In this document: positions 303 through 26,472 of the stretch, piece by piece | How the letters are laid out: every line of letters starts with the position of its first letter | How positions within the stretch are numbered: the stretch's first letter is position 1 | IMG/VR virus record: IMGVR_UViG_3300026321_000017 | Coordinates: 1 to 27,204 of that record | Direction: 5' to 3' (one strand) | Origin: a virus | Taxonomy: Duplodnaviria; Caudoviricetes | DNA length: 27,204 nucleotides | Notes under the pieces: model-generated | Seen by the model: only the letters and a program-made list of their open reading frames with translations | The model's database searches: none | What the model was told of the DNA's origin: nothing | Made by a program: the position numbers and the translations under genes

Positions 303-344
303 TTCAAAACTCCTTTTTTTCATTTCTTAACTTAACCTGAAAAG

Positions 345-620: not shown

Positions 621-649
621 TTCTAAACTCCTGAACTTAATGTAAGTAC

Positions 650-679
650 ATCTTAATCTATACAGTTTACATATGTCAA
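650..679 (-). promoter_or_regulatory. sigma70-type promoter with conserved box
   Basis: TTGACA-N18-TAAGAT; TTGACATATGTAAA at 666-679. Confidence 0.8.
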
Positions 680-689
680 GCAGTTCTTG

Positions 690-734
690 AAAAGAAAAAG
701 GACTAGGGGAAGAAAAGGCTAAAACCCCTAGCCC
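690..734 (-). terminator. intrinsic terminator ending the replication operon
   Basis: GGGCTAGGGG...CCCCTAGTCC stem followed by TTTTTCTTTT on the minus strand. Confidence 0.75.
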
Positions 735-782
735 TAAAACAAGCCACATGGGGTTGGAAGGAGTTAGCAAACCTACCCATGT
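734..782 (-). ncRNA. candidate 3'-UTR-derived antisense/small RNA
   Basis: ACATGGG...CCCATGT stem enclosing the anti-SD TTGCTAACTCCTT, followed by GCTTGTTTTAG; both segments are complementary to the leader at 23691-23736. Confidence 0.4.
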
Positions 783-800
783 ATATCCATGGTACTCTAC

Positions 801-1112
801 CTATTGGAGCAACTCAATCTCCTGAATTAAAAAGGCTCTTGCCTTACTCCCCTTGGTATAGACCTTGACCACGCCGCCTTGGAGTTTCTCAGACTCTGTG
901 GCGGCTTGCTCCAGTTGCCCTAAAGCCTTTTTGAGCCATACTGGAACTGATGTCTGTGTACTCTTAACTTCATAAACATGTGTAGCATTTTCTACATCTG
1001 TGTGGGGTCTGGATTTATCCAGATTCCTCACACCTCCAACTGATGCGGCTACTCTTCTTTCATAAGACTTTCCCCTGTTTCTATTGTTAGCATTTCTTTT
1101 TTTAATATTCAT
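801..1112 (-). CDS. PD-(D/E)XK nuclease, Holliday junction resolvase (Hjc)-like
   Basis: RGKSYERRVA...DVE...YEVKS motif pattern; 103 aa; follows the helicase. Confidence 0.65.
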   Translation of the reverse strand: MNIKKRNANNRNRGKSYERRVAASVGGVRNLDKSRPHTDVENATHVYEVKSTQTSVPVWLKKALGQLEQAATESEKLQGGVVKVYTKGSKARAFLIQEIELLQ

Positions 1113-2416: not shown

Positions 2417-2645
2417 AACTAACTCCTTTTTTAATCGGTCTATTCTCTACTTTCTCAGGATAACTTCCTGAAGAAGCAAGCCTTTCCATAAATCCAATCA
2501 TGTCTCTGGTGTTGACAAAAATCTGGTTGGACTCATCCATTGTCTTCTTTAGCATGAGAAGTGTCTTTTTATGCTCCTCATGCTCAAACTGATATGCCTT
2601 TTTCCATTGCTTTGCTTCAGGGCAAAGGTCCCCCTCATCTACCAC
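2409..2645 (-). CDS. hypothetical protein
   Basis: 78 aa; overlaps both neighbours, consistent with translational coupling. Confidence 0.6.
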   Translation of the reverse strand: MVDEGDLCPEAKQWKKAYQFEHEEHKKTLLMLKKTMDESNQIFVNTRDMIGFMERLASSGSYPEKVENRPIKKGVSFE

Positions 2646-3594: not shown

Positions 3595-3888
3595 TTAATA
3601 TTTACTTTCTTTAACATATGGGTCTACTTCTATTAACTTGCCGTCTACATCTCTTGTATGGCCCTTGACCCAATGTTTGGTTACTGTCATCTCAAATGGT
3701 TTTGGAATCATCCAGACTTGGCTTCCAGATACGACAGGGGAAAAAGCCTTTTCACATTCTCCTAATCTGCCCTGTAGTAAAAGTTGATGAATCCTTTGTC
3801 TGGAAATCCCAAAGTGTTTTCCACATTCCTTCATAGTCCCCCAGTTGTCTGGGTTGTATGTGTCTATGTGTTTTAACTGTTCTTGCAT
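3595..3888 (-). CDS. helix-turn-helix DNA-binding protein
   Basis: TMKECGKHFGISRQRIHQLLLQGRL is an HTH-like motif; first gene after promoter 3953-3982. Confidence 0.7.
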   Translation of the reverse strand: MQEQLKHIDTYNPDNWGTMKECGKHFGISRQRIHQLLLQGRLGECEKAFSPVVSGSQVWMIPKPFEMTVTKHWVKGHTRDVDGKLIEVDPYVKESKY

Positions 3889-3934: not shown

Positions 3935-3948
3935 TTTACGTATGTAAA
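3935..3948. promoter_or_regulatory. extra operator-like near-palindrome TTTACGTATGTAAA
   Basis: Variant of the promoter box located just downstream of the -10 element, upstream of the HTH gene. Confidence 0.5.
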
Positions 3949-3952
3949 GGGA

Positions 3953-3982
3953 ATGTTAATTCATCCCCTTTACCTATGTCAA
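3953..3982 (-). promoter_or_regulatory. sigma70-type promoter with variant box TTGACATAGGTAAA
   Basis: TTGACA-N18-TAACAT. Confidence 0.7.
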
Positions 3983-3987
3983 CCTAA

Positions 3988-4269
3988 TCACCAAGTAATA
4001 TCAAATCTTTGCTCATCCCAAAGCGATACAAGGTCACCAACCCTTTTAATAGCTTGCTCTAGGGTGATAACTGGAGAATAGCTTCCTTCCCAGTCTCCTG
4101 TGCCAGTAAGCAGTTCCTTTATATCTGAATCTTCCATAGTTTCAATGACAAAATCCCATCCACCTTCCTCTTCATAATGAAGGTAAGCATGAGCCTTAAC
4201 CTTTTCCACTAATTCATCAATAGTGGGGTCTTCATTCCACCTATCAGTTCTTTGCAGTTCTACAGACAT
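3988..4269 (-). CDS. acidic hypothetical protein, 93 aa
   Basis: Start moved to the ATG at 4269 after AAGGAG and the leader hairpin. Confidence 0.7.
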   Translation of the reverse strand: MSVELQRTDRWNEDPTIDELVEKVKAHAYLHYEEEGGWDFVIETMEDSDIKELLTGTGDWEGSYSPVITLEQAIKRVGDLVSLWDEQRFDITW

Positions 4270-4275
4270 ATCCGT

Positions 4276-4316
4276 TCTCCTTTTTAGTAGGGGGCTTTCG
4301 CCCCCCTGCTTGTTTA
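4276..4316 (-). repeat. conserved leader: AAACAAGCA-GGGGGGC(GAAA)GCCCCCT-AAGGAG
   Basis: Near-identical to 23934-23975; similar to 23691-23736. Confidence 0.8.
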
Positions 4317-4655
4317 TTACCAAGGTAAATCTTCATCCTCATCTTCTTGTTTAGGTTCTGGAAGTTCTGCCCAAAATACTTGATGAACTCCTAGTTCATT
4401 AAGATGAGCCATATCTTCTTTTATTCGGTCTATTTCTTGGGATAGTTCCCCTATTTGGAGATGAGGCCCACATTCAAAATCCCAAGAACTGCCATGGGCT
4501 GTGATTGTTCCTCCATCAAATGGGTCTACAAATCGGGTGCAAGGCTCTTCTTTTAGGGTTTCTATTTTTGCTTCTGCCCAATTCAGTTCTTCTTGCAAAC
4601 AATAATTCTGAGTAAGAACTTTTACTTGAAGCTGTTTGATTGTTAGTTCTGGCAT
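4317..4655 (-). CDS. hypothetical protein with acidic DEDEDLPW C-terminus
   Basis: AAGGAG RBS; first gene after promoter 4731-4759. Confidence 0.7.
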   Translation of the reverse strand: MPELTIKQLQVKVLTQNYCLQEELNWAEAKIETLKEEPCTRFVDPFDGGTITAHGSSWDFECGPHLQIGELSQEIDRIKEDMAHLNELGVHQVFWAELPEPKQEDEDEDLPW

Positions 4656-4730
4656 TTTTTAACTCCTTGGGTCTGGTTTCGCTTAGTGCTTTTCTAATCC
4701 CAGACCCATGACTTGTTTGTTTATGTGTAC

Positions 4731-4759
4731 ATAGTAGACATGTTCTTTACATATGTCAA
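4731..4759 (-). promoter_or_regulatory. sigma70-type promoter with conserved box
   Basis: TTGACA-N17-TACTAT; TTGACATATGTAAA at 4746-4759. Confidence 0.8.
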
Positions 4760-4812: not shown

Positions 4813-4859
4813 TATAACATAACACCCCTTATAGGAATAAGGGGATGTTATGTCTTAAT
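4813..4859. repeat. long inverted repeat, copy 1
   Basis: TATAACATAACACCCC-ttataggaataa-GGGGATGTTATGTCTTAAT; second copy at 26424-26472. Confidence 0.8.
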
Positions 4860-19375: not shown

Positions 19376-19678
19376 CATAATACATGAAACTTAATTCATG
19401 AATCTTTGTTACTATTAGAATTTCTTCTAACGGGTCAATCATTTCTGTTGACCTCTCATAGTTTCCTATGAGTTCAGACTATCTCATCATCTCCTTGGAG
19501 ATGTTCGGCACTATTGGTGTATTACGTTCTGCGTTCTCAGAACCCCACCTAGTCGTTGAGCCTTCCCTGAAAGCGTTCAGGGCTTGGTTGCGGATTAGCA
19601 TATCCTTTTGGACGTAGCCTTCCCGACAATTCACCGAATTTGCAACAGTTATCACTAACTGAGGGGACACAGTATTTT
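19376..19678 (-). ncRNA. group I self-splicing intron (303 nt, no homing endonuclease)
   Basis: 5' splice site after U (GAGGAU|), terminal G; P AATTGTCGGGAAG, Q AATCCGCAACC, R CTCAACGACTAG, S GAGATAGTCTGA; removal gives in-frame ...MQED/TDAEGGY. Confidence 0.92.
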
Positions 19679-20140
19679 ATCCTCTTGCATAGCCTTGACT
19701 TCATCAGGCGTTGCATTTTTGAAAAAGATTTCCTGAGATGGTGACATCATCCACTTAGCAAATGTGTCTCTCTGGAACGTAGCTTCTTCTTTTTCCCTGA
19801 TTCCCATTTTCTCCTGCACCCATATTGGCTGTGCAACAGCAGGTAATCCTTTTACCCAAGAAGCAGGTTTGTAACTGGCTTTTAACTCAGCCCCATTGTC
19901 ATCTGGGTCGTATGTTGCAAGGTCACTGGATGCAACTGGAACAGTGTTGATAGGTTTTCCAAAATCACCTTTCATTCTGTCCAACTCAGCCTGTGCCTCG
20001 TCTTTTGCATCAGCATCTTGGATGGCTTTTTCAGCCTCCCCCATTTTTGCCTTTGCCTCTTCCACATTCCCCTCTTTGAGAGCCTCATCAGCTTTCTCAA
20101 GAAGGTAAGTGGCGTGGCTTCTAATTTCTGAAGTTTCCAC
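19679..20140 (-). CDS. major capsid protein exon 1 (delta/scaffold-like domain); spliced product 437 aa
   Basis: AAGGAG RBS and GTG start; charged coiled-coil; 154 codons in frame with exon 2. Confidence 0.85.
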
Positions 20141-22936: not shown

Positions 22937-23389
22937 CTATGAAAAATTCCGAAATGTCTTCTTGGAAGACACAATTATTTCTTCTCCAGTCTTGGGAAAA
23001 TATATTGCTCTTATAAGAGTTCCTCTGACTTTGTTTCTGTCTTTATGCCATTCTGCATAGTCCCAAGTGCTGAAAGGTTTTCCATCAAACCCTGTCCTTT
23101 CAACTTGCTCATAATCAGCAGACCAGTCTATGCTTTCAATGCTCCCTTTAGAGCCAAAGACTCCAGTATGCTCAATCTCACTTCCTGTTCTAAGCAGATG
23201 CTCTATTTCTTTCTGATACCTCTGCCTCATAGTCAGTTTGTCTGGCTTTCCTGTTGCTATGTTCACCCCTGCTTGGTCAAGGTTGATTGAGCCATCTGGA
23301 AGTAAGTCTGTCTCACTTCCCATAACACAATGATGCTCAGCTTCATTGTTCTTATGGGCTATGAATATCGACAGTAATTTAGTTTTCAT
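22937..23389 (-). CDS. hypothetical protein
   Basis: 150 aa; TAATG coupling to the upstream gene. Confidence 0.65.
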   Translation of the reverse strand: MKTKLLSIFIAHKNNEAEHHCVMGSETDLLPDGSINLDQAGVNIATGKPDKLTMRQRYQKEIEHLLRTGSEIEHTGVFGSKGSIESIDWSADYEQVERTGFDGKPFSTWDYAEWHKDRNKVRGTLIRAIYFPKTGEEIIVSSKKTFRNFS

Positions 23390-23691
23390 TACTCTGCCTC
23401 CACCTGTATCTGTGTCCTCAATGTAAACGGCTTCTTGCCCTTCAGGATAGCCTTCTCTGTTTCCTTCAACTCAGAGCGTAGGTAATCAAATATCTTGGCA
23501 ACGTCATCTTCTGTGAAATTGTTTCTGGTGTTGGGCTTAGTGATGGCTAATAAATCATCAAACTGATTAGCTATACTATTCACCTTATTGGATATCCTCT
23601 TTCTTTTATTGTGAATCATGGTGCATCTATCTTCACAATGAGAATTACACTCAGCCTCATCTCTATGGTAATAAACATTATCCTTAAACAT
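23389..23691 (-). CDS. hypothetical protein
   Basis: 100 aa; AAGGAG RBS within the conserved leader. Confidence 0.7.
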   Translation of the reverse strand: MFKDNVYYHRDEAECNSHCEDRCTMIHNKRKRISNKVNSIANQFDDLLAITKPNTRNNFTEDDVAKIFDYLRSELKETEKAILKGKKPFTLRTQIQVEAE

Positions 23692-23736
23692 TGCTAACTC
23701 CTTGGGGGGAGTTGCCTCCCCCCTTGCTTGTTTTAG
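23691..23736 (-). repeat. conserved leader: CTAAAACAAGCAA-GGGGGGAG(GCAA)CTCCCCCC-AAGGAGTTAGCAA
   Basis: 8-bp GC stem with a GNRA loop between the AAACAAG box and the SD. Confidence 0.8.
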
Positions 23737-23741
23737 TTATA

Positions 23742-23927
23742 TCAACAGTACCAACATTCACAACAATTACATGGATATGAATTCAAAGGCTCATACCTAC
23801 ATTTATGAACCAAATTACAGACATATTCTTCTTCCTCAGAAACTGGGGAGGTGGAATCTACCGTATCCTCATTTAGTTCCAATATGTATTCCATATATTC
23901 AGTGTCTTGCTCTGTGAAACCTGCCAT
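23742..23927 (-). CDS. small acidic protein with Cys-rich C-terminus
   Basis: AAGGAG RBS; ends CNCCECWYC. Confidence 0.6.
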   Translation of the reverse strand: MAGFTEQDTEYMEYILELNEDTVDSTSPVSEEEEYVCNLVHKCRYEPLNSYPCNCCECWYC

Positions 23928-23933
23928 CTTTCT

Positions 23934-23975
23934 TAACTCCTTTTTGGGGGGCTTTCGCCCCCCTGCTTGTTTTAG
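23934..23975 (-). repeat. conserved leader: CTAAAACAAGCA-GGGGGGC(GAAA)GCCCCCC-AAAAAGGAGTTA
   Basis: Near-identical to 4276-4316. Confidence 0.8.
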
Positions 23976-23980
23976 TTTCT

Positions 23981-24208
23981 TTATAGAGAGCCTACAACAC
24001 CAGTGATGTAGTCCAAGCTGATTTCACCGTTCTTAACAATCCTAAGAATTTCAAGATTGTTTGTGAAGGAATCTTTCCATGTTTTGGAATTCACCCTAGT
24101 GCCATATACAGCTTCAAACTCACCAACATTATGGGTGGTAACCCTGTAAGTGGTAACCCTGTTCATATCCCTTTGTGCAGTGACTATGGTGTTTTCTTTG
24201 ATATTCAT
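23981..24208 (-). CDS. hypothetical protein
   Basis: AAGGAG RBS; first gene after promoter 24242-24270. Confidence 0.7.
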   Translation of the reverse strand: MNIKENTIVTAQRDMNRVTTYRVTTHNVGEFEAVYGTRVNSKTWKDSFTNNLEILRIVKNGEISLDYITGVVGSL

Positions 24209-24241
24209 GTTTAACTCCTTACTAAATTTGTTTATATGGGA

Positions 24242-24270
24242 ATCTTACCTGAACTATTTACATATGTCAA
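24242..24270 (-). promoter_or_regulatory. sigma70-type promoter with conserved box
   Basis: TTGACA-N17-TAAGAT; TTGACATATGTAAA at 24257-24270. Confidence 0.8.
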
Positions 24271-24289: not shown

Positions 24290-24403
24290 CTAAGCAAAGT
24301 TTTTATGCTTGCATCTGGAGCAGACAATGATAGTTCCTTTTACTGCATATTCAGCCAGAAGTTTATTGCACATGGCACATCTGAAATACTTCACCATATT
24401 CAT
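24290..24403 (-). CDS. Mu Com-like zinc-ribbon regulator, 37 aa (below the ORF-track cutoff)
   Basis: Manual translation MNMVKYFRCAMCNKLLAEYAVKGTIIVCSRCKHKNFA; RCxxCNKLLA...CxRCKxxN pattern; ATGA overlap with the upstream gene. Confidence 0.75.
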   Translation of the reverse strand: MNMVKYFRCAMCNKLLAEYAVKGTIIVCSRCKHKNFA

Positions 24404-24639
24404 TTACCTGTCCTGATTATGGGCGTATTGGGGAATCTCTTATTGTATTGATTGATTAACTGAGCCACCCTTGACGCACTAACGTCAACATGGGTGGCTA
24501 TTTCAGCCAATGTGATTTTGGGGTTTTCAATACACAGGTTATTTATAACCTCATATCTTTGGTCTAATTTCCGTAAATCGTCAGCGTTAAACCGTCCATA
24601 GGGACGGTGAATATAATAAGAGGGCATATTCTTTACCAT
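24400..24639 (-). CDS. HTH DNA-binding protein
   Basis: NPKITLAEIATHVDVSASRVAQLI. Confidence 0.7.
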   Translation of the reverse strand: MVKNMPSYYIHRPYGRFNADDLRKLDQRYEVINNLCIENPKITLAEIATHVDVSASRVAQLINQYNKRFPNTPIIRTGK

Positions 24640-25964
24640 ACTCCAACTCCTGCCATGTCTACAAAGGTCATTGCCAGTGCATCTGCCTCATCTGGAGAGT
24701 TAGCCATCTTCTGCTTGCTCTCAAGAATTAAACTCCTGTCAGAACGGATTTCATAACGCCTGCTAACCAGTTGTCCAATTAAAGTGTCCTCATTGGGAAT
24801 CTGTGCATTTCCCCCCAACCAGTCCTTCATTGCAAACCAAGCCTCTGTGGTCTGGTTGCCGAATTGCTCTGCCCTACTAGCCTTTGCCCCTGCTCTAAAG
24901 GGGACTATGTTCTTATGCCCTATTGTTTCCCTCAATCGGTCTGTCACACCACCACCAAGTCCTGTGTCATCAATCACCACTGTGTCCACGTTGTTGTCTG
25001 TTGCGTACCTTCCAATCCATCCTGCTATCGTCATCAAGTCCCTGCCCTGAGTCTGCCACACCATCTCTGCCAAATCGCCTTGCCTCTTAACGACCACCGT
25101 CTTGTCTTTTCCGAATCTTGCTATGTCACACCCTAAGATAATCTCTCCCTGCGGCTCTGAGAGCCTTTGGGTGGCTTCTCTGACAGTAGACAGGTTAATC
25201 ACAGTGTCATCCAACTCCTCAACAAACTCAGCCAGTACACTTCCCCTAAACAGTGGGGAGTCTTCACCCCATTCCACCTTCCTTTCCTCAACATCGTCCA
25301 TGGTCATCATCCCTGCCACTATCACCTCATTCTCAATGACGTTGGGGGTGTCATATGCTGATATATTAATAGACTTCCAGACATCCCTTCTTCCATGGTG
25401 GCTATCGTAGAATTCTCCAGATGAAACAAAAGCGTTCCCTGTCATCAGGATACATTTCGGGTTGAGCCTTCTAAGGGCATTAATTTCTTCCCTTGATACA
25501 GCATGTGCCTCTGTAACAATGCAAAGCAAATTAGGACTGTGGAAGCCCTGCATGTGGAACTCATCACCTGATGAGAACCCCAAGGCATAGTGCTGTTCAT
25601 CAAGGTAGTATCTTGGAGTCTGGAACATCCTGCCCTTAAACGGAACTCTGGAGTTCCTGTAAGCATGTCTGACCTCATTCCAGACGATTTCATGGACTTG
25701 CCTATATGTTGGCCCAGTGACAATGACCTTAGACGGATATGCCATACACATCCACCACAACAGTGTCCTTGCGGCAGTCCAGTCTTTGCCAGAGCCGTTG
25801 CATCCAACAACAGACACCCTGCGGTTGTTTTTCACAGCTTCCATGATTTCCAGTTGCTTGTCATAGGGTGTTGCCCCTAAGACATTCTCCATGAAGAATC
25901 TAGGATTCTGTAAATTCTGGAAGACTACCTCTTGGGGGGATTTCTTCTTCTGGGAAATAACCAT
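24633..25964 (-). CDS. terL: terminase large subunit
   Basis: Walker A GCNGSGKD, VTEA Walker B-like motif, nuclease GCDIARFGKD, IDDTGLGGGV and SPDEADALA. Confidence 0.92.
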   Translation of the reverse strand: MVISQKKKSPQEVVFQNLQNPRFFMENVLGATPYDKQLEIMEAVKNNRRVSVVGCNGSGKDWTAARTLLWWMCMAYPSKVIVTGPTYRQVHEIVWNEVRHAYRNSRVPFKGRMFQTPRYYLDEQHYALGFSSGDEFHMQGFHSPNLLCIVTEAHAVSREEINALRRLNPKCILMTGNAFVSSGEFYDSHHGRRDVWKSINISAYDTPNVIENEVIVAGMMTMDDVEERKVEWGEDSPLFRGSVLAEFVEELDDTVINLSTVREATQRLSEPQGEIILGCDIARFGKDKTVVVKRQGDLAEMVWQTQGRDLMTIAGWIGRYATDNNVDTVVIDDTGLGGGVTDRLRETIGHKNIVPFRAGAKASRAEQFGNQTTEAWFAMKDWLGGNAQIPNEDTLIGQLVSRRYEIRSDRSLILESKQKMANSPDEADALAMTFVDMAGVGVW

Positions 25965-26423: not shown

Positions 26424-26472
26424 TATAACATAACACCCCCCCTCTGTAAGAGGGGGGGCGTTATGTCTTAAT
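26424..26472. repeat. long inverted repeat, copy 2
   Basis: TATAACATAACACCCCCCCTCT-gta-AGAGGGGGGGCGTTATGTCTTAAT. Confidence 0.8.

Follow-up and report, generated by a model that had tools for sequence, protein, structure and literature searches.

Loop-displayed complementarity to an extended ribosome-binding site of early genes in a conserved small-RNA candidate of a marine phage clade

What is known of how small phages end early-gene translation comes mostly from protein systems, T4 RegB among them. RegB, an endoribonuclease, reads a Shine-Dalgarno (SD) sequence with a specific 3′ extension on early mRNAs and spares late mRNAs (PMC3014915). In cluster K mycobacteriophages, an extended ribosome-binding site (RBS) motif, SAS/ESAS, is restricted to non-structural genes and rare in the host, includes some bases that cannot pair with 16S rRNA, and often lies behind promoters with inverted repeats; a single copy stands in the opposite orientation, and the authors did not decide between RNA and protein as its reader (PMC3203893). 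These motifs were described in 2011 (PMC3203893) and were still called ill-defined in 2024–2025 (PMC11373665, PMC12699233). The c4 RNA of phages P1 and P7 (Rfam C4) acts in trans and displays two single-stranded seeds in loops, one directed at an RBS and one at a site upstream (PMC5320573, PMC12197685), while the PeSL cassettes of T4-like phages are repeated units of an early promoter and a hairpin with which variable small genes are swapped (PMC4122927). The phage antisense RNAs described in the review text act on one operon or on host genes (PMC12197685), and a literature search, with supplements and most subscription journals outside its reach, found no paper on the RNA described below or on any phage RNA directed against a shared early RBS.

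The window, meaning the whole 27,204-base marine phage record analyzed here, carries all of its recognizable genes on the minus strand: terminase, portal, protease, capsid and tail genes, an AAA_25 helicase-like gene and, by a weak match, a resolvase. Complete relatives are 31–33 kb long, so part of the early region must be missing from the window; it is present in the relatives L158 and G006, and in L158 it includes a Mom-family DNA-modification gene (Pfam PF25680, 14647–15591). G006 is close kin of the window, so that together with the 31-kb genome G001 (terminase 73% and helicase 58% identical to those of the window) there are really two independent lineages. When the terminase was aligned against GTDB, the best 80 loci (37–56% identity) were all titled Dehalococcoidia or Chloroflexota/Chloroflexi, and these titles point to Dehalococcoidia as the likely class of the uncultured host. 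Among GenBank phages the element has no match, and the best terminase matches there reach at most 34% identity.

The element lies directly behind the resolvase-like gene and has the layout of a small RNA (Table 1). Folded from position 782, it leaves both seeds open, with mean unpaired probabilities of 0.87 for seed B and 0.80 for seed A; when it is folded as read-through from the replication operon, seed B is still open and seed A is partly paired (0.42). Folds of the element in relatives have z values from −2.6 to −4.8, the last being that of G001. The candidate sigma-70-like promoter has a 17-nt spacer and 8 of 12 consensus bases, and so falls below the cut-off of 9 of 12 used in our promoter scan of the window. 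The window and 6/6 relatives (L160, L162, L163, L164, L165 and G001) all have a promoter-like site that ends exactly 6 nt ahead of the stem, against a background in which such a site precedes 0.56% of window positions, and the −10 hexamer is nearer consensus in three of the relatives (TAACAT in L164 and L165, TAAAAT in G001); conservation of the −35 hexamer is not independent evidence, since it lies in resolvase codons. Because of this recurrent placement, it is more likely that the RNA has its own promoter than that it is only the end of the replication transcript, as a sequence-only reading of the same DNA had proposed, but read-through from that transcript would stop at the same terminator. 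Rfam searches gave no match for the element in the window, in L162–L164 or in the G001 region. Two RNA runs contained 5–6% of words, and their five short pieces fall in the helicase gene, leaving the element uncovered. Two protein-coding candidates at this site were rejected: a 130-codon minus-strand ORF across the element (378–770) has an early stop or frame change in 6/6 relatives, and a plus-strand micro-ORF starting at 779 is altered and truncated in L164 and L165, with no plus-strand promoter listed upstream of it.

Table 1 Coordinates in the window of the candidate RNA, its surroundings and its predicted targets
Feature	Position	Strand	Details
Predicted ~92-nt small RNA	690..782	-	Stem-loop 1, single-stranded linker and intrinsic terminator; fold z −2.3
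Stem-loop 1 displaying anti-RBS seed	746..782	-	Fold prediction; 13-mer within 14-nt loop
Seed B, anti-RBS loop	758..770	-	11-nt core retained in distant G001
Seed A, linker complementary to AAACAAG leader motif	734..744	-	Clade-specific, absent from G001
Intrinsic-terminator-like G+C hairpin and U tract	690..734	-	Predicted; also closes replication operon
Candidate −35 hexamer	812..817	-	Putative; inside last resolvase codons
Candidate −10 hexamer, TACCAT	789..794	-	6 nt ahead of stem
Resolvase-like gene	801..1112	-	PHROG 244, weak (E 0.004); closes replication block, directly upstream of element
Near-palindromic early-promoter motif	666..679	-	Just past terminator; copies at 361–374, 3969–3982, 4746–4759 and 24257–24270
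Best predicted target, hairpin leader of gene 23389–23691	23692..23736	-	11+13 nt
Predicted target, hairpin leader of gene 23742–23927	23928..23975	-	11+9 nt
Predicted target, RBS of AAA_25 helicase-like gene 1112–2416	2418..2428	-	10 Watson-Crick pairs and 1 G-U
Predicted target, leader of gene 4317–4655	4656..4722	-	9-nt seed B match and AAACAAG
Weak predicted target, hairpin leader of gene 3988–4269	4270..4316	-	8+6 nt
Predicted target, RBS of gene 23981–24208	24212..24220	-	9 nt
Predicted target, RBS of HTH gene 24400–24639	24643..24651	-	8 pairs and G-U
Predicted target, RBS of small gene starting at 302	308..315	-	8 nt
Weak predicted target, RBS of gene starting at 620	626..632	-	7 nt

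The sequence-only reading had described perfect 13-nt and 11-nt complements to the two halves of one early leader, that of gene 23389–23691, in the order required for an antiparallel duplex, and the coordinates bear out both points. The plus strand at 758–770 equals the leader at 23691–23703 read on the minus strand (13 nt), and the plus strand at 734–744 equals the leader at 23726–23736 read in the same way (11 nt). The 11+9 match that it gave for the second leader also holds (23928–23975, 20 nt), as do the partial matches before 4655 and 4269, which score 15 and 14 nt. The two-seed match is beyond chance: the best score over 42 leaders is 24 matched bases and the second best 20, compared with a maximum of 20 and a second-best maximum of 17 when the 5′ 50 nt were dinucleotide-shuffled 2,000 times, and among 2,174 genomic 50-mers only two scored higher, both of them leader-to-leader copies. 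Nested co-folding with the target, which had been suggested as a check against shuffled controls, gave a net energy of −16.9 kcal/mol, and 5 of 25 shuffles did at least as well; the energy is unremarkable because the model must melt the stem-loop.

The element follows the resolvase in 8/8 metagenome loci with 89–100% resolvase identity and is absent from the 10 inspected loci at 67–75% (18 inspected of the 51 returned), as well as from 12 of the 14 viral loci found by resolvase relationship. In a seven-sequence alignment none of the 13 columns of seed B and 2 of the 11 of seed A vary, compared with 6/14 in the 5′ arm and bulge, 5/6 in the discriminator and 7/10 in the post-terminator spacer, and the four-fold sites of the adjacent resolvase gene differ at 19/41 positions in L164 and 20/41 in L165. 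The complementarity, which the earlier reading had staked on conservation, is thus kept in relatives. Covariation, also proposed as a check, fared less well: there is a single compensated pair, G-C to A-U in the terminator of L164, and it is not significant (64/500 shuffles).

In G001 the element occupies the same position, behind the final gene of the replication block and ahead of the first early promoter, and a 12-bp stem and a long terminator, both of different sequence, are built around the same 11-nt loop core; it has the RBS seed only and lacks seed A. Across the two lineages, then, the conserved core is by alignment one seed, the anti-RBS loop, and we judge from these comparisons that the element is real and selected and is a good candidate for a small RNA. 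A loose pattern scan of viral contigs returned at least 118 loci, among whose listed matches the single relative is a copy of G006, and a tighter pattern returned 3 loci from 2 known records. Scanning with the loop 16-mer gave 117 matches, 70 of which are merely the reverse strand of a real RBS; among these matches the loop is combined with at least 5 same-strand tagged starts only in G006, G007 and G001, and so no new lineage emerged.

Many early and replication genes carry an extended ribosome-binding tag, AAGGAGUUAG, that is complementary to the RNA loop, and the starts of the early cassettes and of the helicase have in common AAGGAG followed by TT(AG). With early and late classes set by hand from gene order and a simple ORF caller, TT follows the AGGAG core at 8/11 early or replication starts vs 0/10 late starts in the window (Fisher p 8e-4), 11/14 vs 0/10 in G006 (p 1e-4) and 15/17 vs 0/7 in G001 (p 1e-4), although these p-values overstate independence because the window and G006 are close kin and the cassettes share ancestry. 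Pooling the three genomes, two of them close kin, TT is found after AGGAG at 34/42 early and 0/27 late starts. At least 8 Watson-Crick pairs with the loop are possible at 7/15 early vs 1/32 late starts in the window, 11/21 vs 1/30 in G006 and 19/24 vs 1/26 in G001. Accessibility-corrected duplex energies likewise favor early over late starts, by 2.8, 4.5 and 6.0 kcal/mol, respectively, a gap that exceeds all 12 shuffles in each genome, although the number of shuffles was small and their scanning step coarser than that used for the real RNA. The 16S tails of 5/5 Dehalococcoidia genomes, taken as host stand-ins, complement AGGAG followed by GTG and would favor GTG after the core, so the TT extension is not explained by ribosome pairing.

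Copies of the tag 8-mer number 7, 11 and 16 on the coding strand of the window, G006 and G001, vs 1, 1 and 2 in antisense, so that the opposite orientation is essentially single-copy and lies away from gene starts. AGGAG followed by TTA occurs at 3/132 candidate starts in 12 other family loci and at 6/1,069 in 80 GTDB loci, and family members without the tag are also without the loop. Similarly, AAACAAG is present in 4/15 early leaders of the window and 4/21 of G006, where seed A is present, vs 0/23 in G001, where it is absent. Compensatory changes linking the loop to its targets were not found; the loop of the window pairs with G001 targets, and the G001 loop with those of the window, equally well. 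The predicted targets thus form a whole class of starts that extends beyond the two best leaders to the helicase, whose RBS is of the same type in G006 and G001, and many of them pair over only 8–9 nt. The earlier proposal that the RNA masks the SDs of several early genes gains from the conservation, the loop display and the enrichment at early starts, but it needs amending in that the targets are broader and the second seed is clade-specific. By eye, the terminator loop also has a 7-nt match to the HTH leader.

The early cassettes lie behind near-palindromic promoters, in which one half of a near-perfect 14-bp palindrome, likely an operator, serves as the −35. A second, opposed palindrome copy at 3935–3948 stands ahead of the HTH gene 3595–3888, which suggests autoregulation, and G001 carries its own palindrome variant. 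Read in the direction of the early promoter at 24270, four small genes come first, three of them with predicted target starts, and then the portal gene. Between this promoter and the portal gene there is a single weak terminator-like site, so transcription alone may not separate early from late genes, which is one reason why control at translation would be worthwhile. The hairpin leader at 23692–23736 is followed by different genes in the relatives L226, L218, L123 and L216 (in L216 the RBS after the leader hairpin is lost), and cassettes are therefore exchanged by recombination at the leader, as with PeSLs.

We propose, with somewhat better than even confidence, that the element encodes a multi-target trans-acting antisense RNA (~92 nt, 782 to 690) that would block ribosome loading on tagged starts and damp translation of early and replication genes; that it has a base-pairing function, whatever its timing, we regard as likely. 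We infer that the RNA is transcribed, that it pairs in vivo and that its action is timed as follows. Fed by a weaker promoter of its own and by read-through from the replication operon, it would accumulate later than the firing of the strong early promoters, and its level would climb with the number of genome copies. By capturing the single-stranded RBS, the loop would deny access to the 30S subunit; in the window clade, a further helix would form between the linker and the AAACAAG motif, which precedes the leader hairpin. Genes for structural proteins have no tag and would therefore be spared, while early cassettes, the helicase and the HTH regulator would be damped even where they apparently share a transcription unit with late genes.

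A wider idea, which we hold tentatively and at a little short of an even chance, is that the early regulon is bar-coded in its RBSs by extra bases that the ribosome does not read and one small phage RNA does. The element would then be an RNA-guided counterpart of RegB that silences a dozen or more scattered, freely swapped genes, and the same logic would also explain the cluster K SAS. If true, a phage would gain global control over a module of constantly exchanged genes, since with an RNA-read tag insertion behind the standard leader is enough to bring any new gene into the regulon, and there would be a concrete answer to the function of the cluster K motifs.

Comparison with the described systems is informative here. 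As with SAS, the RBS extension is confined to non-structural genes, contains conserved bases that cannot pair with the 16S tail (here that of the five stand-in genomes) and has a lone inverted copy away from gene starts. The phage, host phylum and sequence are nevertheless unrelated: the motif here is AAGGAGTTAG, the 13-bp SAS consensus is not matched and the AGGAG core alone is common to both. The available text on SAS proposes no RNA for the inverted site (PMC3203893), whereas the inverted copy here has promoter-like and terminator anatomy and is conserved across lineages. In 24.8 kb of the cluster K phage Anaya we find 14 sense SAS copies and 1 inverted, intergenic copy between gp96 and gp97 (L492 23871–23883; record about 59,870–59,883), which on the coding strand is predicted to fall in the loop of a hairpin; a second hairpin, long and stable, precedes it.

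The element would work like P1 c4 without belonging to that family, by analogy of design. The two RNAs are similar in size and, in the window clade, share a pair of unpaired seeds for an RBS and a site upstream, although G001 has the first of these only and the second seed is thus not conserved. There is no Rfam C4 match in the window (E≤1), in L162–L164 or in the G001 region; two stem-loops, one of them the terminator, stand in place of the three of c4, with no sign of an RNase P precursor; and where c4 acts on an antirepressor operon, the predicted targets here are a class of 8–15 starts spread over the genome. No antirepressor was recognized among these targets, though most of them have no family. 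With T4 RegB the parallel is that an SD extension marks early mRNAs for inactivation, but RegB is a protein nuclease that needs ribosomal protein S1, while we propose an RNA reader and implicate no nuclease. PeSLs fit the target leaders found here and concern those leaders, not an antisense RNA against them.

The same base-pairing RNA might instead serve persistence or immunity, being made steadily and repressing the early and replication genes while the phage persists as a carrier or lysogen, or blocking a superinfecting relative as c4 does for P1. Its promoter is free of the near-palindromic early-promoter motif and could therefore escape an early-promoter repressor, the helicase and HTH genes are among its predicted targets, and related terminases sit in Dehalococcoidia chromosomes. 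We nevertheless think this role unlikely: no integrase, partition protein or antirepressor was recognized among 39 proteins of the window and 29 selected early proteins of G006, G001 and L158 (weak evidence, since most of the proteins had no family), and no integrated copy of the clade was found, the GTDB terminase matches being as distant as given above. A type I-like antitoxin, neutralizing one or a few toxic early proteins, had been part of the sequence-only reading, and the best targets are indeed small proteins of no known function with 20–24 nt of complementarity. That idea found no support and we rate it very improbable, since no target belongs to a recognizable toxin family, the gene behind the best leader varies between relatives, and instead of one fixed small toxin gene as cognate target there are many, the helicase included. 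Least probable of all is a general anti-SD RNA for host translation shut-off. It is true that the last 9 bases of the G001 loop are also those of the Dehalococcoidia 16S tail, but the 10-nt tag is found 9 times in 15.6 Mb of the five Dehalococcoidia genomes, which may not be the host's (reversed control, 28), and 11 times in the 31-kb G001, and its AGGAG+TTA form is rare at the candidate starts of the GTDB loci.

A counter-example comes from one relative. G011 (terminase 74%; record 89% complete) carries AAACAAAG 13 times on its coding strand, and the 89%-complete record has no intergenic antisense copy on that strand; shared leaders therefore need no such RNA. Right after its helicase (L230 2905–3030) stands a hairpin with the phage's own motif in the loop in sense orientation, upstream of a tagged RBS, and this leader, at the element's position, carries both motif types in sense orientation. 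The simplest reading is that it is an ordinary leader, and no convincing promoter lies beside it on the other strand. Read on that other strand, the hairpin has an antisense loop followed by a pyrimidine run. No hairpin antisense to their own commonest RBS 8-mers was found in G002, G012, G013 or G014. The tag could be read by a protein of RegB or RegA type, or have spread by recombination of PeSL-like promoter/leader cassettes. The inverted copy would then have been retained on other grounds, perhaps as part of a terminator or of a stability hairpin, and would pair with no mRNA in vivo. G011 agrees with this, as do the different genes behind one hairpin leader in relatives and the precedent of T4 RegB reading the extended SD of early mRNAs (PMC3014915). 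We consider it rather unlikely, because it does not account for a loop core that is invariant while G001 has another stem and another terminator, for an antisense copy number of essentially one in each genome, or for the joint presence and absence of seed A and the AAACAAG leaders. The G011 leader also makes it plausible that the RNA originated by inversion of a leader, and there are hints that it did so. The earlier reading had offered as its alternative that the element is a decayed, functionless inverted copy of this kind, and both leader halves do stand in leader order. This version is largely refuted and we take it to be quite improbable, since seed B is invariant while about half (~47%) of the neighboring neutral sites have diverged, a stem enclosing the seed stands in place of the leader hairpin, and G001 still has this layout.

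Returning to the leaders as such, the hairpins at 23704–23723, 23946–23963 and 4290–4305 read as intrinsic terminators on the plus strand, in which direction no gene is transcribed. A 68-nt early leader is 82% identical between the otherwise distant phages L164 (1366–1433) and G002 (L215 845–912) and ends in a small hairpin over the SD. In G001 (L212 8226–8855), 630 bases of degenerate short repeats with no called coding-strand gene precede an HTH gene. The major capsid gene of the window is split by a group I intron (Rfam RF00028, 98 bits; 19455–19688, minus strand), at whose site G006 has ~295 bases fewer and an unbroken 436-aa capsid frame. Finally, the window has two long inverted repeats with similar outer arms (4817–4853 and 26427–26467), one of which closes the late region, and the other precedes the small terminase gene.
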